A stretch of 64,000 nt of DNA. Origin: Phoronis australis. Taxonomy: Eukaryota > Animalia > Phoronida. The translations under genes and the position numbers were made by a program. Position 1 is the first letter of the stretch, and each line of letters starts with the position of its first letter. Shown piece after piece: positions 28,076 to 62,503 of the stretch. The notes beneath the pieces are model-generated. The model was not told the DNA's origin. It did not search any database and was given only the letters and a program-made list of their open reading frames with translations. The stretch spans positions 739,565 through 803,564 of the forward strand of contig NMRA01000078.1 of assembly GCA_002633005.1 (NCBI GenBank). Reading direction: 5' to 3'.

Positions 28076-28240
28076 CATGACGGCAAAAAATGACTCTATG
28101 ACTATTAATGCAGCAAAAAATGACTCCATGACTATTAATGCAGCAAAAAATGACTCTATGACTATTAATGCAGCAAAAAATGACTCTATGACTATTAATG
28201 CAGCAAAAAATGACTCTATATGACTATTAATGCAGCAGAA
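28076..28240. repeat. 30-bp minisatellite (ATGACTATTAATGCAGCAAAAAATGACTCT)n, ~5 copies
   Basis: Directly visible. Confidence 0.95.
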
Positions 28241-34077: not shown

Positions 34078-34893
34078 ACAAACCTAGTTAACTTTGCAAC
34101 TAACAGGTGGATTTAAAAGCGGGGCGTCATTGCTGCGGTGCGGTATGAACAGTCAACTTCGGTCTCATCGAAGTTTTTGCCAGGGGCCACTCTTATCATC
34201 AACAAGTAACAACAGTGTTGTCACTAACAGTTGCTTTAGTTTACTTAAATAATCACCACCTGAATAAGAAATGTTTTATTTCAATTAGCACAAGTCATAT
34301 AAATGTTCTCAAATGGTGCGGTATGAACAATCAACTTCGGTCTCATCGAAGTTTTTGCCAGGGGTCACTGTTATCATCAACAAGTAACAACAGTGTTGTC
34401 ACTAACAGTTGCTTTAGTTTGCTTAAATAATCACCACCTGAATAAGAAATGTTTTATTTCAATTAGCACAAGTCATATAAATGTTCTCAAATGGTGCGGT
34501 ATGAACAGTCAACTTCGGTCTCATCGAAGTTTTTGCCAGGGGTCACTGTTATCATCAACAAGTAACAACAGTGTTGTCACTAACAGTTGCTTTAGTTTGT
34601 TTAAATAATCACCACCTGAATAAGAAATGTTTTATTTCAATTGGCACAAGTCATATAAATGTTCTCAAATTGTCACGTTAATAAAAATATTAGTGTGCAC
34701 GCGATGCATCAGCCTACTTTGCGATTACTTCGATCATAACAGTGTCACATGCTGTTTACTTCGATGTCCAGAATGAATGGCTCAGTTAACTTCGATGTCC
34801 AGAATGAATGGCTCAGTTAACTTCGATGTCCAGAATGAATGGCTCAGTTAACTTCTTAGTTGGTACCAGAGTTACATTAGTAAGAAAGGGCCT
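34078..34893 (-). mobile_element. Inverted copy of the Harbinger-like MITE, expanded by internal tandem repeats (178 bp x3; 31 bp x3)
   Basis: Reverse-complement similarity to 13811..14310. GGTGCGGTATGAACA unit starts at ~34137, 34315, 34493; CTTCGATGTCCAGAATGAATGGCTCAGTTAA x3 at ~34759..34855. Confidence 0.7.
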
Positions 34894-37267: not shown

Positions 37268-37316
37268 CTACGCAGCATAAAAAACCCACAGCAAGCAATG
37301 TCTTCACAGGTCCCAT
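37268..37316 (-). CDS. First coding exon, signal peptide MGPVKTLLAVGFLCCV(G), of the minus-strand secreted/membrane protein gene
   Basis: AAG-ATG-G Kozak context, basic then hydrophobic peptide, consensus AG|GTAAGT donor (phase 1), CpG-enriched surroundings. Confidence 0.7.
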
Positions 37317-37700
37317 CTTCAACACGTTGTACTGACACTGCCCGCGAATTCAAAATGGCTTCGAAGTTAAGCGTTGCTCCTCCAAGAAGGTGCCAACGAC
37401 TTGGCAAGTAGGCTAATTATGCAACTCAAGTCAAAGAAAATTAGAGAAAGACGCGTAATCTCGTTGTATGGTTTGATTTCGTGAGAAGTGAAGCGTAACA
37501 ATGACATCAGCAAACCATTCAGCTTGACCGAGGGCGCGGCGTATTTAGTAGGCTACTGTCCACTTCAGTGCGTCGATGGTGAAAGTGAGACGCCTGCCGA
37601 ACAATCAATTTGGGTGTCGCGTTCCAACACAGATTATGTTGCCAAACGATGATCGCGAAGCAGAAACTATTTCCCACTTAGCCAAAACATCAAGATAAAT
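37317..37700 (-). promoter_or_regulatory. Probable 5' UTR/promoter of the minus-strand gene
   Basis: Local CpG enrichment immediately upstream of the ATG exon; YY1-like CAAAATGGC at ~37351. Inference only. Confidence 0.35.
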
Positions 37701-39163
37701 AAGCGGAAGAAACTCATTTGCGTTTAATGATTCATTAACACAAGAGAAGGCTAAATGTCAAACGCATAACCGAAAGTCCTGGTTACGGAGTGCATGCGCC
37801 AAAAACCAGAAAAGAAAGACAGAAAAACAAGAAGAGAGAAATGCAACTGAAGAGAATATTTGTAAACCACGAGTGCTTTGATTTATCCTTCGAAGTCCCA
37901 GGCCATGACATTGTTTTTGGGGCCCCATTTTGTACTGATGAACGCATTTGAATCGTACTCATTCGTACGTGTAGGCTATTTAAAAGATTAGTCGAGGAAA
38001 TTTGTGAAGCACAGTTTTTGCACAGCATATTAATTCACTGGATTTTAAATTCAAGAGGAGAATGCTAGGGAGTGAAAAACTATATTTCACCAGGGACTAG
38101 TCTCTGACAAGAGATAACGGAATCTTCTGTCGCTCTCCTTTTTCGTTGTTCCCGAAATAGTATATCACTAGATGAAAATTGAAAGCCTGACAGATCACAT
38201 CAATTGTTGTTCATTTCCTTTTTTGAAATTACAGATCCTTTTTATAATTAAAGGCCCAGCCCTTGGAGAGGCCCGTTGATGTATTGTTATCGCGGCAACC
38301 CTTTTGATAGGAGGATCCAGGGATGTCAAATGGGTCCGGACCCCTTTTTTACCCTTGATTTTAGTGATGTCAGATCTACAGTTTTCAAATTGTTGACTTG
38401 GACCTCCCTTTTTTAAAAATCTTTGATCCGACCCCCGCCTCTTTAAAAATCCTGGATCCGCCCCTGTGCTTGGTGATTTTTATTAGTAGCTGTTTAAAAG
38501 GCCGCTTATGGAGGGAGGGCCTAATGATACAATCTAATACCTCAGTTTTCCTGTTTCAGTGAAATCGTACAACCTTTTATGCTGAGGAAGGTCATTTCCG
38601 ACCCCTATATTCCACCGAATGCTCCTCCAGAGTCTGCGAGCATGCCATCGGAAATTCTTCATAATATTCTGTTTTGATAAACTAAACATTCGTTGGTTAC
38701 TGATTTACATGTACGAAAAACGAATGATTCATAGATGAGTTTTTGACGCTAATTTTGTAAGAATTGATGATGCTTCAGTTAACTCAATTGCAGACTGAAG
38801 GTGAGGAAATTTTTCCGTTCCCCAAATAATAAAGTACTCAAGACGTTCTTTGCTATCTAAAATAACTATCAAAGGCATGATAAAATTCGAAGATTCTACA
38901 GGGTTTCTCAAAAATGTACTTGCAATTCAGGACAGTAAGTTGTTTATTGACTTAGGAACAAGATTAGCGGTGTAAACTCACNCATTAGTCCCTAACTTGG
39001 AACTGCCGAAGGCGTCCAGATTCCGCGGGAAGCAGACGACCAACAGAATAACTAGCAAACAAGTAATCATCAGTAATTTCAATGTTTACTTAGATAACGC
39101 TACAAAATGACAATACAACAAAACAATGTGTAACTGCGGTAATATAATCAGACTTTAACTTAC

Positions 39164-39212
39164 CTACGCAGCATAAAAAACCCACAGCAAGCAATGTCTT
39201 CACAGGTCCCAT
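39164..39212 (-). CDS. Duplicate copy of the signal-peptide exon (inside the 1.9-kb duplication)
   Basis: Same sequence as 37268..37316 at offset 1896. Confidence 0.45.
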
Positions 39213-42200
39213 CTTCAACACGTTGTACTGACACTGCCCGCGAATTCAAAATGGCTTCGAAGTTAAGCGTTGCTCCTCCAAGAAGGTGCCAACGACTTGG
39301 CAAGTAGGCTAATTATGCAACTCAAGTCAAAGAAAATTAGAGAAAGACGCGTAATCTCGTTGTATGGTTTGATTTCGTGAGAAGTGAAGCGTAACAATGA
39401 CATCAGCAAACCATTCAGCTTGACCGAGGGCGCGGCGTATTTAGTAGGCTACTGTCCACTTCAGTGCGTCGATGGTGAAAGTGAGACGCCTGCCGAACAA
39501 TCAATTTGGGTGTCGCGTTCCAACACAGATTATGTTGCCAAACGATGATCGCGAAGCAGAAACTATTTCCCACTTAGCCAAAACATCAAGATAAATAAGC
39601 GGAAGAAACTCATTTGCGTTTAATGATTCATTAACACAAGAGAAGGCTAAATGTCAAACGCATAACCGAAAGTCCTGGTTACGGAGGGCATGCGTCAAAA
39701 ACCAGAAAAGAAAGACAGAAAAACAAGAAGAGAGAAATGCAACTGAAGAGAATGTTTGTAAACCACGAGTGCTTTGATTTATCCTTCGATGTCCCAGGCC
39801 ATGACATTGTTTTTGGGGCCCCATTTTGTACTGCTAAACGCATTTGAATCGTACTCATTCGTACGTGTAGGCTATTTAAAAAAATAGTCGAGGAAATTTG
39901 TGAAGCACAGTTTTTGCACAGCATATTAATTCACTGGATTTTAAATTCAAGAGGAGAATGCTAGGGAGTGAAAAACTATATTTCACCAGGGACTAGTCTC
40001 TGACAAGAGATAATGGAGTCTTCTGTCGCTCTCCTTTTTCGTTGTTCCCGAAATAGTATATCACTAGATGAAAATTAAGAACCTGACAGATCACATCAAT
40101 TGTTGTTCATTTCCTTTTTTTGAAATTACAGATCCTTTTTGTAATTAGAGGCCCAGCCCTTGGAGAGGCCCGTTGGTGTATTGTTATCGCGGCAACCCTT
40201 TTGATAGGAGGATCCAGGGATGTCAAAGGGGTCCAGACCCTTTTTTTACCCTTGATTTTAGTGATGTCAGATCTACAGTTTTCAAATTGTTGACTTGAAC
40301 CTCCCTTTTTTAAAAATCTTTGATCCGATCCTTCGCCCCTTTAAAAATCCTGGATCCGCCCCTGTGCTTGGTGATTTTTATTAGTAGCTGCTTAAAAGGC
40401 CGCTTATGGAGGGAGGGCCTAATGATACAATCTAATACCTCAGTTTTCCTGTTTCAGTGAAATCGTACAACCTTTTATACTGAAGAAGGTCATTTCCGAC
40501 CCCTATATTCCACCGAATGCCCCTCCAGAGTCTGCGAGCATGCCATCGGAAATTCTTCATAATATTCTGTTTTGATAAACTAAATATTCGTTGGTTACTG
40601 ATTTACATGTACGAAAAACGAATGATTCATAGATGAGTTTTTGACGCTAATTTTGTAAGAATTGATGATGCTTCAGGTAACTCAATTGCAGACTGAAGGT
40701 GAGGAAATCTTTCCGCTCCCCAAATAATAAAGTACTCAAGACGTTCTTTGCTATCTAAAATAACTATCAAAGGTATGATAAAATTCGAAGATTTCTACAG
40801 GGTTTCTCAAAAATGTACTTGCAATTCAAATGACAGTAAATGCATTGTTTATTGACTTAGGAACAAGATTAGCGGTTTAAACTCACAAACAGGACAACAA
40901 AAGGCAACTAAGTTTTTAAATTAAATTTAATTCATTGCTCATCAACTTCGTACGGTTAATTATCTTTGCACTTCCTTGATGATTTTTTAGTTTCCAGTTA
41001 CGGTACATTGTGCAATAAATTTTTCGCTCTCCAGGCAAAACTGAGTCGTTTGTTTGATTATAGCACGTGATGGCTCAAGTCCGGACTTGAAAACAAGATG
41101 TGAATCGTGTTGTAAGCACGAGCGCAGAAATTAATACACCGGAAGTGAATTTTAACTCTCGGCGTTTATACTGAAGTGCGAGGACAAGTTTTTGGGATAC
41201 CCTGTGTACCATTTGTCCCCAGCCACTAGAAACTGTGCTACCCGTGTTTCAAGAAGGGATTTTGAAACAGCCACAAAAGCAATGTTCTAGAGTCTCCGGA
41301 ATCTCACTGTTTCAAAATTTACACCTTCAAAGGATGACTCTAAAACGATTTTCCCCAAACTGGACCATACCTTAGGGCCAGTGCAGATGGATAAGTGCGA
41401 GCTGAACTGCCAGTCTCGAACGAATCATCTGAGCTGACCAGCGGCTAGTCTATTTCATCCAATTTGTATTTTCAGACCTTTGGTTGGCGTGAGCTAAGAC
41501 TTGAGACAGACAGCCCAAATTCTATTCAGCTAAGCATCTGTTGGCCGGCCTCATTGTCACTCTCCATGAAATTTTGTTGAAACACGGTTGCTCAACTTCT
41601 GCCCCCCGTTAAGTTGGTGGTTATCGGAATCCGTAACTGTTGTTCCCTCCCCAAACACTCCCCCCCCCCCCTTTAATCCCATTGCATTGACAGAAACACG
41701 AAACTGTTGAAAACGTAACTTGATTTTGAAGCACCCTGTAGTGGAAACTGCAGAACTGTAATATTAATAATTATGGGTTAGAGTTTCGGGCATGTTAGGC
41801 CGCTGTTCCGCTGCCAATGTTGAATTTTTAACAGTAGCGCTTTGGGGTTTGAAAATGAACCACGCGTACCCGATGAGCCGGCACCTCAAGTCACAGGCAA
41901 TCAATGCGTACTTGAGTGAGCTATTTTTTGAATTTCAATTTTAGGTTTGGCCAACCCCAGGTCTGAAGCGTTCCCTCGATTTGCCACTGGTTACTTTGTT
42001 CTTGTTCGTAGCGGAAATCAAGTCCCATCACTGCAAGGAACATTTTAGTCGTTTCTGCAGCTAAAATATACTGATGATAGATTCCGTTCCTTGTTGTCGT
42101 TGGTCGGTGGAGACCTATTTTCCTGAATGTTTCAGCCACAGGAATTGACATATTTTCTGAAAAAGACTTAAAAGATGAAGAACCGGAACAAATACTAGAT

Positions 42201-45154: not shown

Positions 45155-45330
45155 TAGTGGCGGAATTAGGAGGGATGGGGGGGTTGACAAGGGGGCCATG
45201 GCCCTCCCTAAAATTCTCCCAGATTCCATTTGGCAGTTGGGGGGGTGCGAATATCTGACGGGCAAAATCCCAGCTAATACAGTCTGCCCTGCCCTGCCCC
45301 CCCCAACTCAAAATCATGGATCCGCCCCTG
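45155..45330. mobile_element. Short G/C-tract MITE (AGTGGCGGA..TCCGCCCCT termini); inverted relative at ~57850..58004, similar ends at ~38315..38465 and ~40210..40365
   Basis: Imperfect TIRs; 45230..45295 matches the reverse complement of ~57885..57945. Confidence 0.55.
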
Positions 45331-45477
45331 CAGTAGGGTAACCGAGGTGTGGTGTCAAATCTATTTGCTATGACACTGGTACAGCTTCTTCTCCTGTCAT
45401 GCTAACTTCACGAAATTATGTTGCTTAATTAATATGTTATGTAAATTTTATGTTTTTAGAAAGTCATAAAGAAGTAT

Positions 45478-45557
45478 TGTGCCTTGCAGGATTTGAACGG
45501 TAGTGGCTTGCAAGCTACGCGTGACCGGTGTGGTGATCTTACCACTGTACCATGAGG
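45478..45557 (-). mobile_element. Degenerate tRNA-like/SINE head
   Basis: Minus-strand A-box-like TGGTACAGTGG and B-box-like GTTCAAATCC; no clean cloverleaf. Confidence 0.35.
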
Positions 45558-46386
45558 GATGTTACAGATTGTTGTTTGCGTTTTGTTGTGTAATGATTTT
45601 GTTCTTTAGTTGTGCATGATGATAATTGCTATTGTTAGTAGATTTGTAGGTCATGGTGATAGTTGCTGTGGTATTGATGATCTGACCAAAATACATGTGT
45701 AGGTGATGGTGATAGTTGCTGTGTTTTTTATGATTTATCTACCAACCAGATAATAGATTTGTTGGTCATGGGCACTCGTTAAGACATTTGACTTGGTTGT
45801 AAGTTTTTTTTTCAGCTAAGTTTTCGTAGAGCCCAACAGCAAGGACAATAGAGGTTTCTCATTCCTCTGCAGTAACGTACGATCTGTTACTCAATAATAT
45901 ACATGTCATCAATTGTGACTCCTATTCAAAATCCTGAGTCTGCTCTTATTAAATGGATGAATTTTTATTGTCAGTGCTTAATATAACTTGGTGGGTGCTA
46001 TAATTTCCTATTGACCCGTCCTGGTAAAAAAATAATGATTTCCCTCATCCCACTGTGGCAAGGCATAGGATGGTCTTGCCTGATCTTCAATCTTAGTTGC
46101 AAGACTGTTAACCATAGGTAAGATTCCTCCCAAGAAGAACTGACAATAGGCTGTATAAGGTCAATGGTAAAGTCTTATTGAGGTCATAACCTTGCACTCA
46201 CCTGATTCTAGATTGGAGACGTGTCACAGGAGCTGGCATTGTTTTCAGTCAGTAGGCAGTTAAGGGGTAGTGCTCACGTGATGTCAACTTGCCTGACACC
46301 TATTATCATAGCTAAATGGGCATCATTGTTAAATCAGATTGGTTCTTGCATGATCTCTTTCTCGTATACATCCCTTGGGGAGTTCA

Positions 46387-46455
46387 TGGCTATGTGAATG
46401 TACCCTGGCTATGTGAATGTACCCTGGCTATGTGAATGTACCCTGGCTATGTGAA
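46387..46455. repeat. 19-bp minisatellite (TGGCTATGTGAATGTACCC)n, ~3.6 copies
   Basis: Directly visible, just upstream of the acceptor at 46476. Confidence 0.9.
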
Positions 46456-46506
46456 CGCTCCGCTGTTTTTTTGCAGATGTTTGTGGAGGTTAGTCGAGCC
46501 CTGTAG

Positions 46507-46656
46507 ATGTCAAAAATGAGTGACGGTGTTCGCATGACAAGCTTGACGAGAAGAGCACGAACACACCCTCAGGACATACTGTGGGGAGAGCCTGAAGAAG
46601 TTCAGATAGTGAAAACTATGGACAATAAACTGGGCTTCAATTTTGTAAATGTTCGC
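46507..46656 (+). CDS. Exon 1: N-terminus and start of PDZ1 (EEVQIVKTMDNKLGFNFVNVR)
   Basis: GLGF-like K..KLGF loop; donor CGC|GTAAGT. Confidence 0.8.
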
Positions 46657-49600
46657 GTAAGTTCTTCAGCCAACTATAGTCCTCTGTATTATTACGTGAT
46701 GTTATCGCCCAAATGGTTGGCAGTTGTTGCACTTGTCCTTGTTACTTAGTAAGGTTGTTAAACTGTGAGCTTTGTTATATTGCATCATAACGGATAATTC
46801 TGCTTAACATTGTGCGAGCATGGAAGCGACTTTTAGTTGATTCAATCTCGTGATAGTCTTCTCGATCATTACGGGCTCTCTATTCAAAATTCACGGGGAT
46901 AATAAATGAATTATCATCACAGCTAGGAGCATAAAATCTTTTAAGCCGTGTTTACTTACACAGTCCAACTAGAACAGTTGTATGACTAAGAGGAGGGTTC
47001 ACAAAGAGCTGCTATCACTGACCTTCCAAGCCAGTTTCACTTGTTTATTTATAAACCATTAACTTAAAATGCCAGTTTGCCTAGTTAGACAAATTGCTCA
47101 GTTATGCAAACTAAGCTAATAATTAATTGTTTGCGTAAGGTATGACAAAATACCATTAAAATGCAATATCAATAACCAAAATGTCTGTATTGGGTCATAT
47201 ATTTAATCATTTTTAACAATATGCCGATCTTACCACAGATTCATTTTTGTCCTAGTAAGTCGTTGTTTGTTGCAGGACGAGGTGGAGACGTATTCCATTG
47301 TCACTAGTATTGGCAATGAGTGTACTGTTCAACAAGGTGACTTATCGAAAGGTTGTCGCATCATTGAAGTCAACCGTCACAACATTACGCATGAAAGTGG
47401 TGAAAAAATCCACAGACTGTTGCTATCGACGACCAGCGTCGCCTTCCTATGTGTGAGGAAAGCAACTGGACTCCTACCGTTGTCAAGGATTGAAGATAGT
47501 CACGTAACCAATGTCGCCACTAACCACTTGCCACTTACTAAAACTGGAAGTAGTAGTAGCTCAAATGCCAGTGGCGATCATCTGTCAAATATTACAGGTG
47601 TGATCAAGGACACTAATAATCATGTACAGGTTACCAAAAAGACGAGCAACAGCAGTTCCAATGTCAGCATTGGTCGTCAGTCAGGTATGGAAATTAGGCC
47701 CCTCGTCAAAAATGGCCAAGAACCCCTTCCAACAAAAAGAAGTAGTAGTGGCTCAAACGCTAGTGCTGATCATTTGTGGAGTACTGAAAGTGCCGTCAGT
47801 GTAAACCTGGAGAGTGTATCAGCCCAGGAGAGTGGTGGTCAGCTTGGTTCATCCAGGATCAGACAGGTGGCAGCAGCGGACAATAATTTAATAGGTTACG
47901 TCCTCAAGAGCCCCCACCGCGTCAGATGGCATGAAAGAATGCTAAAACTGGAAATAAAAAATGTTCCCGGCGCCAAACTGCTGGAGAAGAAATGCAAGAG
48001 AAGCAAAGCTGACATCTACTTATTGGTCACTTTGGTTGAGTCTAGCAGTCCTGCTTATGGTGTTTTGAAAGCCGGAGACTGGATTAGATCAGTGAACGGT
48101 GTTCCAATTCACGATGAAGAAACGGTAAATAATGCAATTGCTTAAAGTTTATCGCGGACGGTATTACTTGTAAAGTTGGTTCCTTCTGATCGGTGTGTTA
48201 AGAACATCGCTCTGAGCCCAACAGTACTATAAATTGCAAATGTAATGAACTAGTAGGTTAAATGGCTTGCATTTGTCTATGTCACCATTAGAATCACCTT
48301 TTAAGTGAAACAGCTGCAAAAACAATGGTGTTCTATTGAAGCCCCTATTCAATTCAGCCTTTTGTTATTTGTGCTGGATTGTCCTAATGATGTATGGTAA
48401 CATGGCACGAAAAGACAATTTCACATATTGTTTGATGGGCCTATATTCGATTGTTTTGCTAAGGCTTTGCTAGGACTATAGTTAGCCCAATGCATCTAAA
48501 ATAATTAAATTCTATTCAAGATAGGCTTTAAAGCATCAGAGAAACTGACTGATTTAGACCATTTACTGCTATGAAATTGGTCTCTGCTTAATCATGAGAT
48601 CGTGTACGCGTGAACTTGGAATTAAATATTCATTAAAGTAATCAGATGCTAGTTTTTCTTCAATGTAAAGAAACTTTCAAATTATTGGCGCCACGATCAT
48701 CTGTTTTTTTCCTTTACTGGAACTTGTGTCTCACAATCGAGGAATATGTGAATGGTTAATCAATAATTGTTTGGTGAATAAGATTGTCAAACAGAACAAT
48801 AAATGTCGATAAAAATTACTTTATTTTGTTAAAATGCGATTTGCTTTAGTGCAGTACAAATTTTTTCAACGTGAACAAGATTGTTTGAGTGACCTTGCCA
48901 TATTTCTTAGGGTATTCAAGTTTACGCATACATTATCTTGAGATTAATAAGCAAAATTCAAAGTCAAAGCACGATAGATTAAAGACGCTATGTTTCATTA
49001 ACACTGTGACCGTAATTCTTTAAATTTGTAGCAATTGCTGCTTAGTGACTTCCTGGAGAATTGTGTGTACAAGTATAATCAGGAAACAAAATAATTGGAA
49101 ATAAATTGCGGTTTTAAAAAAACTGTGCAACTAATGCTCTTAAAAACGTGTAAACATATAAAAAGCAAGTAATTCCAAATATTACGCAATTATTATTTGA
49201 TAGTTAAAATCAGTAAATAATAAAAACTGTGCATTGTTTCTTTTGGGTAACAACAGTGCTCATTTACGTAAAAATAGTCCCACAAAACGAGACTTTGCGA
49301 GATTGCAATGGTAACTGGTTCTCCGATGGAGGACCGCGGTTGTTCATAAATTAGTACATCATTTGCACATTCACAATTTAATGAGACTATGTGTCTTTAA
49401 CTTGGATCTTTATCAAATTGGTTTAAGAATTCCCTTGCCTCAATACCGACTTCTTTCTGCCACTTAAATTGAGAGAGTGGTTGAGGTTGACTCGAAGCAT
49501 CCAACCTAATTGGGAAGGGTAGGACAACGCTATTAAAACTTGCAGTGTTTTGACACCATTTGTACTTGATGTTGGTTGAGCCGTGTACATAGAGAGAAAA

Positions 49601-52600
49601 ACATGGATATTCTTAATAAATAGCCGTGAACGCAAGCAGCTCATGTGACGCCATATTGTGTGGAGGTTCACTGTAAACGAACCAATATGGCTGCAGGTGA
49701 ATAGGGACCTTGGTGTATTAAATGCAAAATACTGACAAACAGAAATACGCTAAGCATTATTAGCGGGATACTTAAATTTAAGACTTAAGATTTTCAGATG
49801 AATGTTCTGATATCAACGTAAAAATTCCGAATATATAAGCACTTTGGTACATATTTCATCAAAATCGACCCACTGATTTCAAACTTAGTTCCCTATATCA
49901 TACCAAGTTAAACAGTACATAGCACTCAGCTCCAAACTACAAAATGGCCGCCCGGCTATACGTATACAAAATCATGTGATGGCCAATCTCTGCCTCTATA
50001 TCTATGGTTTGAGTAATCAGTGAGGAAATGAAATTCACTCTTTATAGTGATATGGAGGGTTTGAGACCTGTTTTGTCTGGTTGAATAATCTGGTTTATAA
50101 TTTACATTTCAGGTACTAGGTGAATAAAGTGTCCCAAGAAGCTTTATTGTTGACATCCAGTCACCATGTTGTTTACATACTTTTTATTTTTTCAAGAATG
50201 TCTTCATGACAAAACAAAACATTGACTGACTTTGTTGGAATCGTTTTAACCGAACTAAGTTATTATAAACAGTAAACGATTGTTTTCAGGCACGAAAATT
50301 TCAAGGCATTATAGAGAATTGCCAGGAACCCACAATAACAATGCACGTCCAACGACCGTTTGATATCCTCGAAGCTTCTTCATCCTCGAGTGTCACTCAG
50401 GTGCCCTCTGGTGTCACCCAGGTGACTTCCATTTCTGATATCCGCCACGTGCCTTCAACTTGTGTTGAGAGCATACCTTCGACTTCTGCTAATAACTTGT
50501 TTGAAGTACCGAAAACAGTGTCTACTGATCCTCAACTGCAAGCTGCTTTTAACTCAATTGTATCAAAGGCATTAAACAAACCAACAAATTACTTTCCGCA
50601 GAGCAAGGTTATTGTGATTGGTTCGAACAGTGAGATGGTGGCCAAGTACGTGCTGGGTTGTGATTCGCAGCCCACGTCACATTTGCTGCGCAACGTCCAT
50701 AAACGCGTGGTTCGTGTGAATTGCAAAGATAGGGAAGTATTAATCACACCTCCTGACGGATATACTTCAACAGTGGATGAATGTCTTGCCCACCAGGTGA
50801 TTAAAGAGGTCTTTGAGAGCACGACACTTGATGAATGTGCAAGAGTTCAGATAAGTAAAAGCCTGATGCACAACAACATTCAAGACGTGCGAGGCATCGA
50901 CGGCCAGTTACTAGCGCGGCTCTTGGCTGATGGTGGTGTGGTCAACAGTGCACTCTTTGACCTGGAAATCACCTGTTTGAAGGACACGCCAGTAGCTGTA
51001 GCTTGCAGGCCCATCCTCTTCTCACACCTCGCACAGTTTGTGTTGACATTCAATGTGGATGAACTTCTTGAAAACGGAGAATACGTGATGAGTCGTCTGT
51101 TCACGAACTTAACAGAAATTCGTTTTTTCACAGGAAAGGACACCCCAGTGTTGCTTGTTTGTTGTGGAGCCATGCGTAGTGATGTCGATGTCTGCGGAAT
51201 ATTGGACTCGTACAGTCTACGCTCTCTCTTCTCCTCTCACTTAGTGTACAACAGGTCATCCAAGTGCCCTGTATTCCATCTGTGCATGTCACATGGCAGG
51301 TCATGTGAGAGGTCTGGTGACACTGATAATTTAAAGCAGGCCATCATAAACTATGCTGTACGTTCTAGCATGGCCCCGCAGAAGTACCCATTGGCCAGTT
51401 TTGCCTTCTTAAAGCAGATTCAGAAGATGCGTTCCCAAAAACACTTCATCATAGCTGCTAGCACTGCTCGCTGTGTGCTGGAGGATATTTCCGGACCCAT
51501 CAATTCAGATTATCAACACCAGGTGCTGTCCTGTCTTCACTCAATGGGCGAGATTGTTTACAAAGGTAGGGAATTGTTTCATCAGACATGCCCTGCTATG
51601 GTGATAACCTGGCTCATAGCCTACATTCCTCTAAACAGCCATCCCAACTTAAAAAAAAAAAAAATTCCCAAACTTTGTCTTTGAATTTTAACTTAATTAC
51701 TGTATATTGGCCCCTATGTATAGTCCAAATAACATTTTATTTCTGATCAGTCTAAATGTTTTCCAATTGTTTTGCATTAGGTGTCCATTATACACACCAG
51801 GAAGTGGGTGCATTATATTTTTGTATTGTTTTATCCTTTAAGATGCATAGTTGTGAATATGCGAATGAAGTCATGACTAATACAAACAACCGCTGTCCTC
51901 CAGTATGTCGGAAACCATCCGAGAACCAGTTACCGTAATTACAGTCTCGTTAAATCTTGTTTTGCAAGATTATTTTTTGTAAATTAGTATGGTAAGATTG
52001 CTTTGTTACCCTAATGAAATGAGGTACAGTTTTTATCTGTGTCTATTTCAATGTTTGTTTCTTTTCCCGACTCTTCATGTACTCACAGTTCTTCAGGAAG
52101 TCACTAGGTGGCGCTTGCTACACATTTAAATATTCACGTTTTTTATGAGACGACGTCTTTAAGTTGAAAGGTAGTTCTCATCTACTTTCAAATTGAAGCT
52201 TGCAAACATGTCCTGCAGAAGATACTATGCTCAACTTTTCACCCCCATACGGTCAGCCATGTTGTATGTTGCTGCATGTTTGTATAGATGCAGCACCCCG
52301 TACATTCAGAAGGTCCTGAAGATCTGAATATACGGATAATGTATCGCGATTCTGTGAAAGCACAGGTTCCTACTTCTAGAGGACATGCTCCAGCCTGAAG
52401 GTGGTGTATTTATGAACTGATTAAACGCATTGTATCGTTGTAGATCGGTCAGACTCGTGCATCTTTATAAACACGGACGTACTGTTCGCATGTGCAAAGC
52501 AATTGTTCATGGTACCAGCCAAAGTGGATCAAACACGGAGGTGGCGTAGCGATTGGGAGAAACTGGAACAATGTGGCCTGGCTTCGAAAGACTTCCTCTT

Positions 52601-55600
52601 GGCCCCCAGAGTCACTGATGGTGATGAGGTCAAAGGTCAACACGTGCTGGCTTGCTTCCAGTGGTATGGACTGGTATTTACGTTCGGCGATGAGTTCCTC
52701 CTGCCTCATTTCATGCCGAAGTTGTGTAATCGTGAGCTGAGCCGTACGACATCACTAGACTCTCTAATTAGGACGGGTCGTGAACTCTACATCCAGTTCA
52801 CAGAGCCGCCACATTTAACTGTGATCTACGAACTGTACTCGCGTTGTTCCAAGGAGTGTGCCAGCAGAGGGGGCAAAAGCGATGTTGTGGATAGGTACAG
52901 TGCAGTCTTCAGGCAAGAGGTACTGGAATATTTGATGCGATATACCCCTATGTCCAGCATGATAAAGGTGATAGTCAGGTGAGCAATTAGTTAAAACTTC
53001 ATATTAAATTATATTTAGCAGCTAACAAATTATTTATTTTGCAACTGAAGCTTATAACATCTTTTCGTTACCGTGACAGCTTTTGAATTCCGTTACCAAC
53101 AAAAACATCAAAAACATGTATTTACACAGACCGTTTTCGATTGCATAATGATTACAAATAAATTGGGATGTACAATCGTACTGCCTTAAATGACAAGTGA
53201 ACTGTAGGTGGCGCTGAACATTGTCCATCATGTACTCAGGCATTTGCCATTTCAGGTCTGGGGATGGCGTCCTGAATCCATTTCTCTTGCAACTGCAGGA
53301 TATTGTCAGAGATGTCCTGAAGCACTCATCATACAGCTGTGTTATTGGCCCAGCTTGTCCAGCCAGTGAATGTGTTGAACTGGGCAGCCTGCATGTCCTT
53401 GACCTTGCAGCTCAACCGCCAGTACATTGTGGGATTGAACAGCTGGACACTCATCCTGATGTCTGCAGCTGGTTACCTTCAGAGGTATGTCCGTGTGCAG
53501 CATGCTGTGTGGCCATTTGCAGTAATGCAGGGTCATTTTGCCCCCATAAATTGAGCCTGTTCATGACAATCCTCTCGTTGGTGTCAAGGCAAAAGTTACT
53601 TATTATTGTGTGTATTAAAGATGCATGATCTCATTACATTGTGAATTTGCAAATGAAGTACTAATTTATAAATGACTCTGGGTCCTCCAGTGTGCTGGAA
53701 ATCATCTGAGAGCCTGTTACCATTACAATCTTGCAAAAGTCTCGTTTTGTGCGACTATTTTTATGTAACTGAGCATGGTAATATTTCATTGTTACCCAAA
53801 TGAAACAAGGCATAGTTTTTGCTTATTTCACTATCAAAGACCGCTTGCGTAATATTTAGAATTACTAGTAAGGGTTCACACTTGTTTTTAATTGTATCTG
53901 ATGCGTTTTCTTTAAAGCTGCAAATTGTTTCAACCTTTTCCTGATTATACTTGTACACACAGTTCTCCTGGAAGTCACTAGGTGGCTCTTGCTACAAATT
54001 TAAATATTCATGGTTTAATGAGACATAGCATCTTGAATGTGTATGCAATAGTTCTGTGCCTACTACTACTTCTGGTGCTGCAGAAAACTGGCTACTTGTT
54101 CACATCAGTGGATAAAGATTGCTGATTGTGAATTCATAATTCAGACCACCAACTGTGCACAACACCTTACCAATCAGGATAATGGTTTTCCGGATCGATA
54201 CCAAGAGTGCCTGTCCGTGCCACCCTGCAACCCAACCCACAAATCCAGTATATGCACCTAGAAATGATAGCACACAGCCAATAGGGCCATCCAGGATTAC
54301 GTGGCAGTAGAACTCTCTTTTGTCCCAGAGATAAGAAAGTGCGTGATCTAGTTTTGGAAATCAGGCACATTTTCGTGTCTCATTGATGTCGAGAAGGGGA
54401 AGAATTTCAGGTCACGCATCCGTCATTTTTGTTTGTCCAGTTTATCAAACTTTCTCACTTTGGAGATGCAACCCACAACACAGCAGTAATACTTTGTTGG
54501 CATTGGAAGGACAAATAGAGTAATGCAACCGAGAAAAACTTGTAAAGAATCAGACAATAACAAATAACATGTGAAATCACACAGTAAAATCAAATTACCC
54601 ATCTGAGACAATGTCTGAGGGCCATGGTAACTGTCCAACTGGGTAGTTCATCTATCTTAGACTATGTCTAAGGGCCATGGTAACTATCCAACTGGGTAGT
54701 ACATCTATCTGAGACAATATCTGAGGGGCCATGCTTACTATCCAACTGAGTTGCACATTTGTCATAAGTTGTTTCATGTGAAAGCCTCTTGAAAAAGTCG
54801 TTTGCAGCAAGGTCAATTGGTTTGGCCTTCCAGTGATATTTTATTATAGTGACAAGATTGTGAAAATTGCTTTATCGAGACACTTTATCACCATGGTGAT
54901 TCTTTTACTGTTTATCTTTAATCAGGTGCGTAACCCTGTCGTTAGGGTGTTTGCCTCTGCACATGCCCGGAAACCTGTTTCGATGGAAACCCGACTGAAT
55001 AATATCCCAGAAGGCCTTGCTCAGGTCATCACCAATTTGTATAATATTCCCATGACGTTGGGTAGAGACTGGACTCATTTAGCTGGTAAGACAACTCATC
55101 AAAGTTAACTTTGTTATTCAGTTTGATTCCAATTTACAATGTTCTCTGCTAGATATATTTCTGACTGCCAGGTGTGAATGTATACTCATCCTCCAGGGCT
55201 CATATTACAGACCTCAACATTTTGTCTGGTTGAACCACCTCAGACGTCTTTTTATTTTAATTAAAGCTAAAGGTTTTGGCCTCCAAACGAGTACGCAGTA
55301 TATCTTTGTTTTAAGTCACTTTGAATTAGTGTTCCAAATTTTTGCATTGTTATAAAACTTTGAGCATACTATCGTGGAAGAATTAATAGACTGGCAGCCG
55401 CTTTCATTAATAGAAAGAGTAGTTAGCAACTGCCCCTAAGGAACCCCAAAGAATGCCAAAGGAACCCCCCCCCCCCCCCCCCCAAATGAGCCTTGTGGCT
55501 TGTGAAGGGTTTACCTACTAATGCTTTGAACTAGATTGAATTGTTTAATTGATTCACAACCCATGCCAAATGAGGTCGTATGGAGCTGGCAGGGCATTGT

Positions 55601-56904
55601 TTAACTTCCAACATCCATGGGACAGGCATAAGCACGTCGCATGGTTATCACCTTTGGGGCGCTACCATTGTTTTCTTTTTTGGATATTAATTATTTAACA
55701 ATACATGGATATCTTACCTTGGGCGTACATCAGCTGTTTACCGATAAATGCTTTTCATTATAATCTTTATTATACCAAGTGAACTACGGATGCACCAATC
55801 CATGGATCTCTATGCAACTAGCTTGCGACCTAGTTTCCCATTGGTAATTGCCTGAAGTTGATAGTTGTCATTTTGCCTATTGGGGATTATGGTAATATGT
55901 CTGACATCAGTTTTGAAGGAGAGTAGTAATTGCTAATCATGCCATCTGTTCATTGCCCACAATTTCTCAAAATTTTTCTTAGGTGGTGGCCGTGGTATTG
56001 TAGTTGAACATGGAAACTATTAATTTGGTAATACATGTCTTTCGTGGAAAAAATGAGGAGTAAAATAAAACATTTGTCGGTCACATTGTGTCCTAATTTG
56101 GTGAGATTTTACTGGCGTGTATTTCAAATTCACTTGGTGGCTCCAAGGGTTCTACCAGTAAACATGCAGGCAGTGCTTGATACTGGCAAAAATGTCCGCT
56201 CGAAAATACGAGAGATGGCATATTTGCCACTCGTATTTCCGGATTTGGGCTCATAAAAAGCGGCGTCAGAAAAAAACGCCGAACATCTGCTCAGCACCTG
56301 TATTAGTGATAGAAGTAGGATCAATTTACTGTTCTATTTTACTTCTTCTACTCATATTTTTTAGCGTATACTTACTTATGTATTGATGACATGGGTTCTG
56401 TATCATGTGAAGGGTACCATATCATGTGTAGGGTCCATGCTGACAGAATTTCTAATTGCTCCGCATCTACTCATTAGCACCACATGTTGCTGTTTGTGCA
56501 CTTGAGAAATGTACGTACTCAGTGAAGTACCCATAGGCAGACTTAGGAGTTGCACAAATGACCCTGCCAGCTTCTGGGCATCATTAATAACAAACGACAC
56601 CTAGTTGCTGTTTTTAAGGCTGACATGAAGGTTTTTCCTTTCTGGAATAATGGTCCTTCTTCTCCTCATGACATTGTAAGTTCCTGCATTCTCACTTGTT
56701 TCATTCTCTGCAGCAAAACTTGATCTGACCATCACCGCAATAGCCAGGCTGAAGATGGTTGATGACCCCTGCAGGGCCATCATTCTCAACTGGGCTACAA
56801 CTGGCGCTACCGTAAAGAATCTTTTGGATGTAAGCGAGTCCTTAGAACGTCTGGATGTGTGTGAGGATGTGATGGAGTGGATAAACTCTCAACAGCAACA
56901 ATGA
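46507..56904 (+). CDS. 7-exon gene, 1129 aa: PDZ-PDZ-degenerate Roc-COR-Death domain (Roco-like) protein
   Basis: Exons of 150+849+1276+535+229+160+191 = 3390 nt, all GT-AG, phases 0,0,1,2,0,1 match. Domain motifs run continuously across junctions (PDZ1 exons 1/2, PDZ2 exons 2/3, COR exons 3/4/5, Death domain exons 6/7). Confidence 0.85.
47276..48124 (+). CDS. Exon 2: rest of PDZ1, Ser-rich linker, most of PDZ2
   Basis: TTGCAG acceptor; GDLSKGCRIIEVNRHNI and SSPAYGVLKAGDWIRSVNGVPI PDZ signatures; donor ACG|GTAAAT. Confidence 0.85.
50290..51565 (+). CDS. Exon 3: end of PDZ2, degenerate Roc domain, start of COR
   Basis: TTTTCAG acceptor; ARKFQGIIENCQEPTITMHVQR completes PDZ2; KVIVIG, FSHLAQFVLTFNV, PVLLV; COR-like LSCLHSMGEIVY; donor AAG|GTAGG. 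Confidence 0.85.
52444..52978 (+). CDS. Exon 4: COR domain
   Basis: GTTGTAG acceptor (phase 1); CIFINTDVLF..WEKLEQCGL..FQWYGLV..FLLPHFMP; donor CAG|GTGAG. Confidence 0.85.
53256..53484 (+). CDS. Exon 5: C-terminal COR region with Cys/His cluster
   Basis: TTTCAG acceptor (phase 2); donor GAG|GTATGT. Confidence 0.8.
54598..54750. repeat. ~52-bp intronic tandem repeat x3
   Basis: ATCTGAGACAATGTCTGAGGGCCATGGTAACTGTCCAACTGGGTAG variants. Confidence 0.8.
54926..55085 (+). CDS. Exon 6: start of Death domain (..ITNLYNIPMTLGRDWTHLA)
   Basis: TTTAATCAG acceptor, CTG|GTAAG donor; G-x-D-W-x-x-L-A helix-2 motif. Confidence 0.85.
56714..56904 (+). CDS. Exon 7 (terminal): rest of Death domain, AKLDLTITAIARLKMVDDPCRAIILNWATTGATVKNLLDVSESLERLDVCEDVMEWINSQQQQ*
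   Basis: CTCTGCAG acceptor (phase 1); P..IL.W..GATV..L...LER.DV Death-domain pattern; TGA at 56902..56904. Absent from the supplied ORF track. Confidence 0.85.
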
Positions 56905-59244
56905 CTTGGCTGTGTCAGTATCAGTGTTAAGAGTGCTGCATAGCCTCAGTCTGCCATTTGGAACTCAATATTGTCACGCAGGGAAATCTTATTGTGAACA
57001 GGTGTCCTGGGTTTTGAGAACCAGTTTGATGACAGTTATTCAGTAGAGAAGACTGGTTCTCATATTGCAGGACCCAGTAGGTGACTATTTCGGCAAAAAC
57101 TGTAGGAATGTTTCCCCTCGTTCGCAGCATAGTATGTGTCATGTAGCCAACGTCTGCTTGCGCTTGACGAAATTCGGAATAATTCAAAACCACTGTACCT
57201 CAGAAATGAAGAAATGATTATGTTGGCAATATTTCAGTTAGTGGAGACATTGTATTGCTAACAATGGAAAAGATGTATTGCAGCTCTGCACTATATTGTA
57301 TTGTAGTGAACCTCTGCTTTTGCTTGAATGTGTTGTTTATTGAACAAAATGGTGGACGCTATGTTGATGCAGTGCAAACACAATGTCCTAACAAGAGACA
57401 GTAAAACTGTGAGGCACATCCTGTTCTGGACTTTCTACCTTAAAGAGTTCTAATTCAATTGTAGAAACAGTCTTTTAGAGGTTGGTTTGTACCTATCACT
57501 AACGGGCTCATTCTGAGCGCCACCTACAGCGTAATTCACAAATATTTTGTGAACCCTTTGACAAATTGATGGTGAACTATACTGTAGGAAGTGACGTCCA
57601 GATCATAGAGTCTGTCAAGATGAGAGTCATTATGTCATCGACTCTTGATGTATATTACACCTGCTGCTGAATCTGACAGGAAAACTTATATCTCATCTTT
57701 GGCTACGAGGGATTCTTTGTCTCATAACAGCAACAAACCTTTTCTGTTATTTGTCTGACAACAGCTCATTCCGTTTTGGCTCACCTAACAATCTATTGGC
57801 CAAAACCACTGCTATCCGTTGTGGGCGCAGTAATACATGAATGGCCCATAGGGACGAATACAGAATTTTTTGGTTAGGGGGGAGCAGGGCAGAGTATTAG
57901 CCAGATTTTGCCCATCAGACATTTGCACCCCCGAATTGCCCAGTGGAGGGGGAGGGGGCATGGCCCCCTTGGCCCTCCCCCCCCCCCCCTCAAATCTGCC
58001 ACTGGCCTAACACGTAGTGAGGTTGAGGGAATCTGAGGCTCATTTCATGAAATGTAACTGAACACTAAAATTTGGTTTTGTGCTCCGCACAACTGTTCCT
58101 GAAAAACAATTAAAAAATCTTGCTTGTGCTAAGTGTCTGAGAGTATCATTATTTTGACTTAACTCATGTAAAAACACTTCAGTTAAATTTTACAACATAA
58201 AAAAAAATATTATTATTGTTTGTGGAACGATACATCTGGAAAATCTTCCTCTTTTTGTCATAGGTCATTCTAATCTGTGGGCTTTATTCATTGATTGTGA
58301 TTCATTGATTGTGAATAGGGAGTTAAAAACCAAATTTCTGACTTAAGACTCAAATTACTTCTTATGAAGCGGATCTTTGGAGTGAGCTTTTCGACAGTGC
58401 TGTATATGATATCTGATATTTTTGTAAGCTAGACGTATTTATTTTTATGCAAACTATTTATTGTTTAAATGTCAGTGCTAATTTCCATTCACCTGTACAC
58501 TGTAAAACAAACCAGATTAATTTTCAACAATTTTCTATCTATTTTTATAGTCCAAAGCAATAAATAAATGGGTTAAATTTTTGCCGTCACAACCGTACGC
58601 TTCCAACAAGTCTTGAACTCCCTCTCTGACTCCTTAAATCCTTTATTTTGTACACTCCCGAAAAATTGTAATAATTGTGAACAGTCCCTTACTCGACCCA
58701 CGGTGGAGCTAGTCCATTTCTCGTTCAGTTGACGATTGTAACTTTTTTGAAACCATGTTGTTTACAGGACATCACGTGTACTCCCATCTTACTAAGTATC
58801 TTCTTTTTCGACCACGAATCCCATTGTTCTTCCTCGTCCCCCTCCGATATTATATCTAATATTGGCATGGTACTTATTGAGAGCTTTTATTTAAAGATGT
58901 TCATGACGTTGGTCAGTTTGATAGCAGTTAAAATTGTGTTATTCAAATATTCATGTTGGCGTTTTTTGCCTTCAAAATTGCCAAAGGTGGGTGGACTGTT
59001 GCGGTTTAAACATATCAGTTGTTGTTACAACGAAATAGGATTTGTTTTTGTTCAACCAAATAAAGGTAACTTAAGAAAGTGGCGAGATACTGAATTTTTC
59101 AGGTTTAGATGTGCAGTATAATCCTCATTTCTTAATATTATGCAACTGTCTGCTTATGTACTAGCTATGTGAATTATTCAATTATTTTGCATGATCTCTA
59201 ACACATTAGTGGTATTATTACTTTAATAAAAACAACAACCATTT

Positions 59245-59294
59245 TTAACCGTGACATGTTTCGTGGGAGTCATCCCACATCTTCAGACATTTAT
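59245..59294 (-). ncRNA. Minimal type I hammerhead ribozyme (Penelope-like-element type)
   Basis: Minus strand: AUAAAUGU-CUGAAGA-U-GUGGGA-UGAC-UCCCAC-GAAA-CAUG-UC-ACGGUUAA. Intact core, perfect 6-bp stem II, palindromic ACAUGU minimal stem III, GUC cleavage triplet. Confidence 0.8.
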
Positions 59295-59490
59295 TCTCAA
59301 ATAACCAGCTCAGAGCTATTTACAAAGAAAATTCAGTACGAGTTGGTACAAAAACATGAATGACAACAGAAGTGACAAGGATTTACATTTTACTTATGAA
59401 TGTTAAAGATTTAACTGGTGACTGAGCCATTCCTGCTTTTGTTGTGACTCTGTTCTGATTTTCGTGTTGTATACAGCCGGATGTTTGAGA

Positions 59491-59540
59491 TTAAACGTCT
59501 GAAGATTCGGGATGGTTCTGATGAAACATGTCACAATTAA
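59491..59540 (+). ncRNA. Minimal hammerhead ribozyme, diverged inverted partner
   Basis: UUAAACGU-CUGAAGA-U-UCGGGA-UGG-UUCUGA-U-GAAA-CAUG-UC-ACAAUUAA; stem II has G-U pairs and stem I is weaker. Confidence 0.65.
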
Positions 59541-60215
59541 ATAAGGTTGTGCCTTTATATCACTTGACACATTGTATAAAGTAGTCTCTTGTTCAGAACC
59601 ATTTGTGCAAATAATTGGCTTTTCGTGTCATTTTGTGGGACTGCAGGTTATTCAAGTGTTAGTGAGAATTACTTGACAACGTTACTTATAGCGAAATCAT
59701 TCTATTGTATAGCAACTGTGATATCTGGAAATGTTAACGTTGTGTTGAAGATATTGTATAAGTACATTTTGCTACTAAATCAAACATTTTATATTAATGG
59801 TTTTGGTCAGAGCTAGTGTTTTTAGACACAGCCACATACGTTGTTTGACTAGAGTTTTAGAAACTTTTTTTAAAAAATGCCAGTGCTGTTTGTAGAGTTT
59901 TTAGACATAGCTAGTCATTGTAGCTTGTCTCAAGTCTTAGGAAGTGTTAAATAATATCAGTGCTGAATCTTATTTCGTTTGTATGGATAGTAAGCCCGCA
60001 GCCATGGTTACGTATTAGTGACACCATGTATTGTAATTGACCTATCGCCAGGACTTTGAGTGACTGCTTAAGTAACCAATTAGAACGCAGCATTCNCATT
60101 TCTTAATATTATGCAACTGTCTGCTTATGTACTAGCTATGTGAATTATTCAATTATTTTGCATGATCTCTAACACATTAGTGGTATTATTACTTTAATAA
60201 AAACAACAACCATTT

Positions 60216-60265
60216 TTAACCGTGACATGTTTCGTGGGAGTCATCCCACATCTTCAGACATTTAT
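60216..60265 (-). ncRNA. Duplicate of the minus-strand hammerhead
   Basis: Same sequence as 59245..59294. Confidence 0.7.
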
Positions 60266-60460
60266 TCTCAAATAACCAGCTCAGAGCTATTTACAAAGAA
60301 AATTCAGCACCAGTTGGTACAAAAACATGAATGACACAGAAGTGACAAGGATTTACATTTTACTTATGAATGTTAAAGATTTAACTGGTGACTGAGCCAT
60401 TCCTGCTTTTGTTGTAACTCTGTTCTGATTTTCGTGTTGTATACAGCCGGATGTTTGAGA

Positions 60461-60510
60461 TTAAACGTCTGAAGATTCGGGATGGTTCTGATGAAACATT
60501 TCACAATTAA
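60461..60510 (+). ncRNA. Duplicate of the plus-strand hammerhead, stem III disrupted (GAAACATTTC)
   Basis: G>T change relative to GAAACATGTC at 59523..59532. Confidence 0.45.
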
Positions 60511-62503
60511 AAAAGGTTGTGCATTTATATCACTTGACAAATTGTATAAAGTAGTCTCTTGTTCAGAAACATGTGTGCAAATAATCGGCTTTTCGTGTCA
60601 TTTTGTGGAACTGCAGGTTATTCAAGTGTTAGTGAGAATTACTTGACAGCGTTACTTATAGCGAAATCATTCTATTGTATTGCAACTGTGATATCTGGAA
60701 ATGTTAACGTTGTGTTGAAGATATTGTATAAGTATATTTTGCTACTAAATCAAAGATTTTTATATTAATGGTTTTGGTCAGAGCTAGTGTTTTTAGACAC
60801 AGCCACATACGTTGTTTGACTAGAGTTTTAGAAACTTTTTTAAAAAATGCCAGCGCTGTTGGTAGAGTTTTTAGACAGCTAGTCATTGTAGCCTGTCTCA
60901 AGTCTTAGGAACTGTTAAATAATATCAGTGCTGAATCTTATTTCGTTTGTATGGATAGTAAGCCCACAGCCATGGTTACGTATTAGTGACACCATGTATT
61001 GTAATTGACCTGTCGCCAGGACTTTGAGTGACTGCTTAAGTAACCAATTAGAACGCAGCATTCTTGACACACCTTCGTTTCCAAGCCACCATTTTACCCG
61101 ACAAACAACACGTTGCCACTTATTGTTTGTTTGTCGACATTTCGCAAGTGGGTGAGCCTTGCGATAGGTCAATTGGGGATCCCTGTAAACTGGGTGGGCT
61201 CATTTATCAATGGGCGTTTGTGGATTAGCCCTTGGGCTTCTATACGAAATGTAGCAATGTAAGGGGCAGTATCTTATGAAGATCAAGAACATATTGTTAA
61301 CCATGCTTCCCCTGGGGGGGGCCAGATTAGTGCATGCGTGTCAGTGTACAGCTACCAACCGACAGAGTATAATTTTGAATAACTGTTGGCATTCAGTGCA
61401 TTGCTGGAAGACCTTGAACATGAAAAGGTCAATTTTGATGAGATTTATCGTAATTGAATAGCTTCCATTTATTCTCAGTCGTATCTTCTGGTACAGTATG
61501 GAATTTGGTTATCAATAGAATTTATGATGCAACCAACTACTGTGGTCATTTGCCGAGTAGGGCTGCAAGGTACATATTTATATTCGCTGTGTGTAAATGT
61601 TCAACACCACCTATAGTTTACGTGTAACTGGAGATTTTGAAACGATGGAACTTTCCAGCTGTCACGGTGCTGTAACATTACGATCGTATGGTGGGATGTT
61701 CAAATGATTCTCGTACAAGTACATATAAGAAAGAACTTAATATACGTCTTCATTTGCTCTGCCCATCTTTATTTCCATAATTTTAATTGGGTTGTCGCTT
61801 TTGTACTAAATTTGAATGTTTCGTGTTTCTGTGGTAATTTTTTACACGTGTGTAATGAATGCATCGGAATGGTGCGAAGTGCCTTCAGAGTATTTCACTG
61901 GGAATGCACACAAATCCAACCAACCACTCCCAAGTTTATGCCCAGCTGTGGGCCGTGTAGTCGTTTGGTCTAGTCGATTGAAATGCTGCGTTTACGAGAC
62001 ATTGTGATGTCCGAAAAATGTAATTTATTATTTTTTGTAATTTGACACCAGGTGCCTGACTGTGTGATCCAGGCACACTAGTTTACCAGGTGGCGAGACT
62101 GTCTCATCCACGATTTGGCTCTGAACTCACATAGAACTGCCACGACATTTAGCAATTCTGTTAGAAATAGTTTGGCAGTGACAATTGACAAGGGAAGCAA
62201 AAGAATTTGTAAAAAGGAGAAGTAACTTCTTGGTATTGCTGTTGATGTCTGATAATACAATGCGGCATACTTTGTTCATGCAAAAGTACCATGTGGAGAT
62301 AATCTGATAATCTAAGTAAAAATACAGGCTAGTGTTGGCTGTCAGAGTAAATGTTTATTTTACATAACTTAGAGAGGGAAGTCATGATCAAGCCATTTGG
62401 TGCCACTTTTGTGAATGGTGCATTTGTGGGAGGGTTTACACCTACTACAAACCTGCTTTCTGTCAGTTATAAGGTTTCATTTAGGTCACTAAAGGTCACT
62501 AAA

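Follow-up and report, generated by a model that had tools for sequence, protein, structure and literature searches.

Organization and Expression of the Gene

The window, by which we mean the whole 64,000-nucleotide stretch of the Phoronis australis contig that was analyzed, carries on its + strand a gene that we modelled as seven exons spanning 46516-56904 and encoding 1126 residues with a single, terminal stop codon. The domain order of the protein is PDZ-PDZ-Roc-COR-Cys-rich-Death, distributed over the exons as follows.

46507..46656, + strand: exon 1 (coding), start of PDZ1; spliced contig over 46477-46654
47276..48124, + strand: exon 2, remainder of PDZ1, a Ser-rich linker and most of PDZ2; flanking introns in RNA
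50290..51565, + strand: exon 3, end of PDZ2, linker, helix alpha0, the entire pseudo-Roc and the first half of COR-A; RNA
52444..52978, + strand: exon 4, COR; gene model and RNA introns
53256..53484, + strand: exon 5, end of COR-B and a Cys-rich knot; 46% identity to Lingula over 54 aa
54926..55085, + strand: exon 6, first part of the death domain; gene model, RNA and Lingula alignment
56714..56904, + strand: exon 7, remainder of the death domain and stop codon; Pfam PF00531 at 23 bits (cut-off 22.6)

Residues are numbered from the ATG at 46516; there is an alternative ATG at 46507, and an in-frame TAG at 46504, just 5' of the first ATG, lies inside the spliced contig. All six introns are GT-AG and in phase, and all are supported by RNA data, as reads of the raw runs X5, X6 and X7 (about 18-19% of each run was examined) and as spliced contigs (X4). 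The reads spanning introns 2 to 6 numbered, for X5/X6/X7, 5/1/12, 4/3/3, 2/3/3, 6/2/2 and 10/3/4, respectively, with X4 spliced contigs in each case. Intron 1, at whose joint two allele letters occur, was crossed by three reads in X5 and two in X6, in addition to X4, and is absent among the joints listed for X7. Over the Roc region we counted 92 reads from the three runs, at a depth of mostly 2-12, all stranded for a + transcript.

The initial annotation had described this region as an intact open reading frame. A stop-free frame of 471 codons does exist (50269-51684), but in reality it is exon 3 of a spliced gene. The frame is indeed without stop or frameshift, as had been said, and no indel allele occurs among the RNA reads. 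The openness of the frame had also been taken to argue for maintained function; that proves the weaker argument, and the claim is better carried by splicing, by expression and by a Lingula orthologue with the same losses.

In exon 2, Pfam matches PF00595 (27.2 bits, in two stretches) and PF17820 (E 2.6e-7). The stop codon that closes the frame of this exon was rejected as a real terminus, being intronic, since the exon ends at 48124. PDZ is all that Pfam reports in the N-terminal exons, with no kinase or ankyrin repeats, and in exons 3-5 there is no match at E up to 10, neither Roc nor COR. PDZ2 (47918-50358) is without a clear Gly-Leu-Gly-Phe-type binding loop and shows a gap against the Lingula PDZ2, which has the loop; judged from this alignment, the usual mode of peptide binding may be absent from Phoronis PDZ2. 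No other block is as well conserved with Lingula as the Cys-rich knot (53320-53478; 46% over 54 aa), which aligns with the P-C-x-x-C that follows COR-B in 48 of 65 bacterial Roco references; it is likely zinc-binding.

No paralogue was found within the window by tblastn, and the 89 stop-to-stop frames of at least 72 aa outside 46000-57000 gave no Pfam hit above the curated cut-off, a screen that genes of small exons would escape. The window also contains two tandem near-duplicates. One, of 1.9 kb and 97.6% identity (37087-38981 and 38983-40886), may be either a real duplication or a pair of haplotypes joined end to end in the assembly; the other, of 0.97 kb and 97.3% identity (59126-60095 and 60097-61063) with an N near the junction, is likely an assembly artefact. 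Short high-copy repeats at 45168-45601, 54282-54715 and 56886-57300, the last just past the stop codon, have very deep partial coverage on both strands with loose ends and are likely dispersed mobile elements. Tandem repeat arrays lie at 1749-2232, 28083-28243 and 34137-34670, with periods of about 63, 30 and 178 bases.

An Orthologue in Lingula

A phmmer search of 1.84 billion representatives returned three hits, of which one is genuine, P0007, Lingula anatina XP_013402390.2 (E 1.5e-7, query residues 3-325). P0005 and P0006 were rejected as homologues, being bacterial Ig/cadherin repeats that match a stretch of 48-50 residues. The whole gene model aligns with XP_013402390.2 over 760 aa at 24% identity (E 3e-45); both PDZ domains align and the C-terminal ends coincide. 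The Lingula protein shares the PDZ-PDZ-Roc-COR-Death order and, like the Phoronis protein, has broken G1-G4 motifs; it differs in its length (1427 aa, with longer linkers), in having Arg at the Lys site of the P-loop and in retaining the Thr of G4. Pfam finds in it PDZ and Death (PF00531) only, neither Roc nor COR. Both this record (LOC106168013) and a second, 98.2% identical to it (LOC106163420, XP_013396460.1), are labelled 'uncharacterized' and not annotated as Roco; from their identity the two are likely alleles. We found no literature on either accession, and neither appears in the PMC8195603 supplement files searched, which are part of the set.

Four protein searches yielded one orthologue cluster in total. 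The word-indexed searches among them gave no homologue among 2915 candidates with the Phoronis piece, and P0007 as the sole homologue among 5194 and among 191 candidates; the method is insensitive at 24% identity, so these counts do not establish that the family is small. Sequence searches of the PDB gave no Roc, returning three weak unrelated hits for exon 3 (E 0.43-1.1) and, for Lingula, death and PDZ domains with weak unrelated chains. In a tree of 41 rows the Phoronis and Lingula proteins pair at 100/100, on branches of 2.49 and 1.32 changes per column; because of these long branches, and because none of the references was identified as a DAPK1, the pair cannot be placed among the Roco subfamilies.

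Homology to Roc and COR

The central part of the protein falls into two regions.

50605..51369, + strand: pseudo-Roc G domain (residues 436-690); HH profile match, structural match of the model
51370..53319, + strand: COR-A and COR-B (residues about 691-955) in exons 3-5, boundaries approximate; HH match

Reference Roco proteins were obtained by scanning genomes and metagenomes for a switch II motif, which gave at least 243 loci; 101 of the 243 had an open frame, a P-loop and enough downstream sequence and were kept, 82 of them after removal of redundancy, and long-insert eukaryote-like Roco sequences were added. All six of the references that were tested carry Pfam Roc and COR-A. One metagenome (L122-L201, contigs Ga0209960_*) is rich in closely related, intron-less Roco genes of eukaryote-like type, which form a large family and carry a long insert between G1 and G3.

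A two-sequence profile of the Phoronis and Lingula proteins matched 37 Roco references with an HH probability of 97.9 and a score of 104, compared with 13.9 for the reversed profile and at most 26.4 in 40 column shuffles. The two parts also match separately: COR (residues 691-860) with Lingula at a probability of 94.9 and a score of 54.6 (shuffles at most 18.8), and Roc with Lingula at 89.8 and 46.1 (40 shuffles, at most 19.9), which supports the Roc homology asserted by the initial annotation. Phoronis COR scores 33.8 even without Lingula (172 shuffles, at most 23.8). Phoronis Roc alone (255 residues) reaches 23.6 against the Roc profile, which exceeds the scores of four further segments of this protein (13.9-14.5) and is not significant against 198 shuffles (mean 13.5, maximum 25.4); since the score lies inside the shuffle range, the Roc identity is not provable from the Phoronis sequence alone. 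The two-species profile shows a Roc-COR homology that Pfam misses.

Language-model (Atlas) searches point the same way, both of them made with the Lingula protein, not the Phoronis sequence. With Lingula residues 670-1050 the search independently retrieved Roc/COR clusters (top score 0.94, 207 of 256 features), and each of its 10 best hits with an assigned family belonged to the Roc/COR family or clan. With the Lingula C-terminal part and Ras-family clusters excluded, the nearest cluster was auto-named DAPK1 (0.94, 197 of 256 features), a lead only; 4 of the 10 best hits shared a family.

AlphaFold gave no fold from the Phoronis single sequence (pLDDT 33.9); with the orthologue and 39 canonical Roco rows it gave a model with pLDDT 72.9 and pTM 0.70. 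The top Foldseek match of this model is 4wnr; by structural alignment, LRRK2 9cho scores best with Z 16.9 and rmsd 4.2 over 253 residues, ahead of 4wnr with Z 16.2, rmsd 4.1 and 227 residues aligned, and Rab-type GTPases score lower, at about 13. Because the alignment contained Roco rows these values are partly circular, and the model supports compatibility with the fold, not its discovery. The order of elements is that of Roc, as had been noticed at the outset, with strands and helices and then COR in Roco order. Taken together, the profile matches identify the stretch as a homologue of the Roc G domain directly followed by COR, and by this tandem the protein belongs to the Roco family.

State of the Nucleotide-Binding Motifs

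The three peptides that the initial annotation had quoted for strand 1 with G1, for G3 and for G4 lie in frame at 50605-50649, 50968-51051 and 51145-51174, respectively, and the consensus GxxxxGK[ST], reported as absent, occurs neither in the 1126-aa model nor in its Lingula counterpart. We assigned motif columns from 30 realignments with random reference subsets. Conservation of G1 and G3 in the 39 references exists by construction, these having been selected on those motifs, and is not counted as evidence; of the motifs outside the selection, T-x-G-[IVL] is present in 36 of 39 references, and 31 have the G4 Asp.

50620..50649, + strand: remodelled P-loop (G1); realignments, predicted helix start
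50665..50904, + strand: insert of about 80 residues between alpha1 and beta2 (456-535); block pLDDT 34-51
50929..50931, + strand: G2 (switch I Thr), commonest position D544 (Lingula E781); register unsure
50974..50985, + strand: degenerate G3, C559 for Asp and D562 for Gly (Lingula D812); realignments
51163..51174, + strand: degenerate G4, C622 for Thr/Asn and M625 for Asp (Lingula T872, K875); 27 of 30 realignments
51298..51333, + strand: G5 region and start of alpha5, S668 retained; reference alignment

In G1, the column of the first Gly is occupied by G441 (Lingula G691) in all 30 realignments. The second Gly column faces A448/A698 in 20 realignments and M446/S696 in 8, the Lys column K449/R699 in 20 and V447/V697 in 7, and the Ser/Thr column Y450/M700 in 17, A448/A698 in 7 and, across a gap, S460 in 4. 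On these alignments the P-loop most likely carries a two-residue insertion, keeps a basic residue and loses the Mg-binding hydroxyl. The view that the catalytic motifs had been replaced thus needs qualifying: G1, G3 and G4 are lost, but with G441 and probably K449 retained the P-loop has been remodelled rather than erased. In Ras-like folds helix alpha1 begins near the P-loop Lys; here it is predicted to begin at S444, two residues past G441, where block pLDDT values are 89 and 70. The insert that follows alpha1 aligns with Lingula at 60 positions, 13 of them identical.

G2, about which the initial annotation was silent, is lost as well. The switch I Thr column faces D544/E781 in 12 of 23 scorable realignments, and a separate alignment gives another register; none of the five commonest placements has Thr, and neither protein contains T-x-G-[IVL]. 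The degeneracy of G3 and G4 is as had been described, C559 standing at the G3 Asp column in at least 23 of 30 realignments, the G3 Gly being replaced by D562/D812 in 25 of 30, and C622 and M625 standing at the [TN]xxD of G4. PMC6337361 singles out the switch II region as the best conserved of Roco proteins, so its loss here goes beyond the usual drift of a variable motif. Both species have the Ser of G5, as do 27 of 39 reference rows; G5 is described as variable among Roco proteins (PMC6337361).

Acidic residues E445, D544 and D562 are predicted to lie near the phosphate site, and Lingula has Asp or Glu there too. From the aligned columns, G1-G4 are broken in both species, partly via identical changes, and A448/A698 and D562/D812, new states that the two proteins share, suggest a single ancient loss.

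Allelic Variation

The RNA reads and one spliced contig show no variant inside the codons of G1, G3 and G4 and no indel (run X5 lacks coverage over part of G1 and G4), which excludes assembly error as the source of the motif loss. Between 50540 and 51570 there are 13 allele differences, 10 of them amino-acid-changing and three silent (pN/pS 0.96), of which five come from one haplotype in X6, at low read depth. One allele, R626C, adjoins G4. None of the 10 amino-acid-changing alleles falls at a position identical in Lingula (78 of 340 are identical; P 0.07). Among the 40 of 429 differences listed, 11 codons are affected in exons 1, 4 and 7, seven with a residue change, so that the gene is variable throughout; in exon 1 (46516-46656) all five affected codons listed change the residue, two via double substitutions. 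A pN/pS near 1 fits relaxed constraint or diversifying selection, and purifying selection on Roc is not evident.

Interpretation

We favor, at a probability of roughly 60%, the reading that this Roc, devoid of the G1-G4 motifs, is a conserved class-i pseudo-GTPase that is GTP-free and forms the fixed core of a PDZ-PDZ-Roc-COR-Death adaptor. The protein likely serves cell-death or immune signalling as a fixed scaffold and not as a switch.

The mechanism that we propose has three steps. Firstly, the domain would, with high probability, bind no Mg-GTP, because the Ser/Thr of the P-loop has become Tyr/Met, the Gly before the Lys is Ala and the guanine-reading Asp of G4 is gone, and because the predicted alpha1 extends over a phosphate site with acidic residues. 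The column of A448 is presumably that of the same P-loop Gly as Rac G15 and RhoA G17. The mutants Rac G15A and RhoA G17A are in use as nucleotide-free forms (PMC3608494). Secondly, with no GTP to open the tandem, Roc-COR would, we are somewhat inclined to think, be held in a single state; the simplest candidate is a COR-B dimer like that of nucleotide-free CtRoco, which GTP opens (PMC11052575). Thirdly, at about even odds, the PDZ pair would dock on membrane-protein tails and the death domain would recruit death-domain proteins, so that clustering, in place of a nucleotide cycle, would set the signalling.

A bolder version of this proposal is doubtful. It would make the pair representatives of an old and unrecognised family of animal Roco proteins that lack the switch and go unseen by Pfam; acidic residues would take the place of the nucleotide and lock Roc-COR in one state, and the dead G domain would serve as a fast-changing sensor or decoy surface. 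The target might equally doubtfully be, for example, pathogen factors that act on GTPases, the domain being wired to a death domain and two PDZ anchors.

It is also conceivable, though we judge it unlikely, that Roc became inactive long ago and has been drifting since, retained because COR folds against it, with the PDZ, COR and death domains doing the work. The pN/pS of 0.96 on 13 differences, the long branches of 2.49 and 1.32 changes per column, and an identity to Lingula (78 of 340 positions) no higher than in the rest of the protein would all suit such a spacer. A drifting domain agrees less well with the new P-loop and D562 being common to two very distant proteins, with a shared alpha4-beta6 stretch (14 identities in 41), and with the absence of all 10 amino-acid-changing alleles from Lingula-identical positions (P 0.07).

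Less probable again is a class-ii pseudo-GTPase, one that would hold a nucleotide or another phosphate ligand via Gly and Lys/Arg without hydrolysis or switching. G441/G691 in 30 of 30 realignments, K449/R699 in 20 of 30 and the retained G5 Ser are what such a site might use, but it would have to manage without Ser/Thr for Mg, with Ala at the second Gly, without the G4 Asp and with a helix predicted over the P-loop.

That the region is no G domain at all, and merely a chance alpha/beta pattern ahead of a COR-like region, we consider very improbable. The lack of any Pfam hit at E up to 10 or of a Roc match in the PDB by sequence, together with the Phoronis Roc score within the shuffle range, would be expected under this view, but it leaves unexplained the Roc-only profile match once Lingula is added, the Roc/COR language-model neighbors of the Lingula piece, and strands, helices and COR in Roco order. 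Most improbable of all is a pseudogene or assembly error, to which the low read depth (mostly 2-12) and the many amino-acid-changing alleles might point, against six canonical GT-AG introns, in phase and each seen in RNA, a list of alleles free of stops and indels, and the loss of the same motifs in the Lingula orthologue.

Roco proteins are regarded as GTP switches. A Roc-COR whose motifs disappeared a single time, yet which persists in two very distant animal proteins, would be a counter-example, a tandem retained as a scaffold. It would also offer a natural 'never-loaded' Roc-COR for the question of how nucleotide affects Roco dimers. The weight of the finding is limited by a family of two; because such Roc-COR proteins escape Pfam, further examples probably lie unnoticed among PDZ and death-domain proteins labelled 'uncharacterized'.

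Comparison with Known Systems

Among the papers listed in a literature search over titles and the beginnings of abstracts there was no motif-less Roc and no PDZ-Roc-COR-Death protein, and we found none linking Roco with pseudoGTPases.

With DAPK1-type Roco proteins (kinase-ankyrin-Roc-COR-Death) the Phoronis and Lingula proteins have in common a Roc-COR followed by a C-terminal death domain (PMC6337361), but they are without kinase or ankyrin repeats and have two PDZ domains instead. DAPK1 binds and hydrolyses GTP (PMC4104024, PMC6337361). The best structural matches of the model, the Parkinson's protein LRRK2, LRRK1, CtRoco and MbRoco2, keep the G motifs and cycle with GTP, and their LRR and kinase domains are absent in the Phoronis protein. 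Judged by its residues, the Phoronis protein lacks what an active Roco GTPase has at each of G1, G2, G3 and G4.

In sequence and predicted structure the Phoronis domain is instead a G fold with degraded motifs, as are the class-i pseudoGTPases p190RhoGAP pG1, AAGAB, CENP-M and the fungal dynein LIC. It resembles pG1 in the predicted extension of alpha1 over the phosphate site and the acidic residue at switch II; in pG1, nucleotide binding is blocked by an alpha1 extension, with an acidic side chain at the gamma-phosphate site (PMC5593906). These proteins are of unrelated origin and none has a COR, and their non-binding was shown by structure and assay, whereas that of the Phoronis Roc is a prediction. 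What is distinctive in the Phoronis protein is a motif loss shared across a deep animal divergence, combined with a PDZ-PDZ front end.
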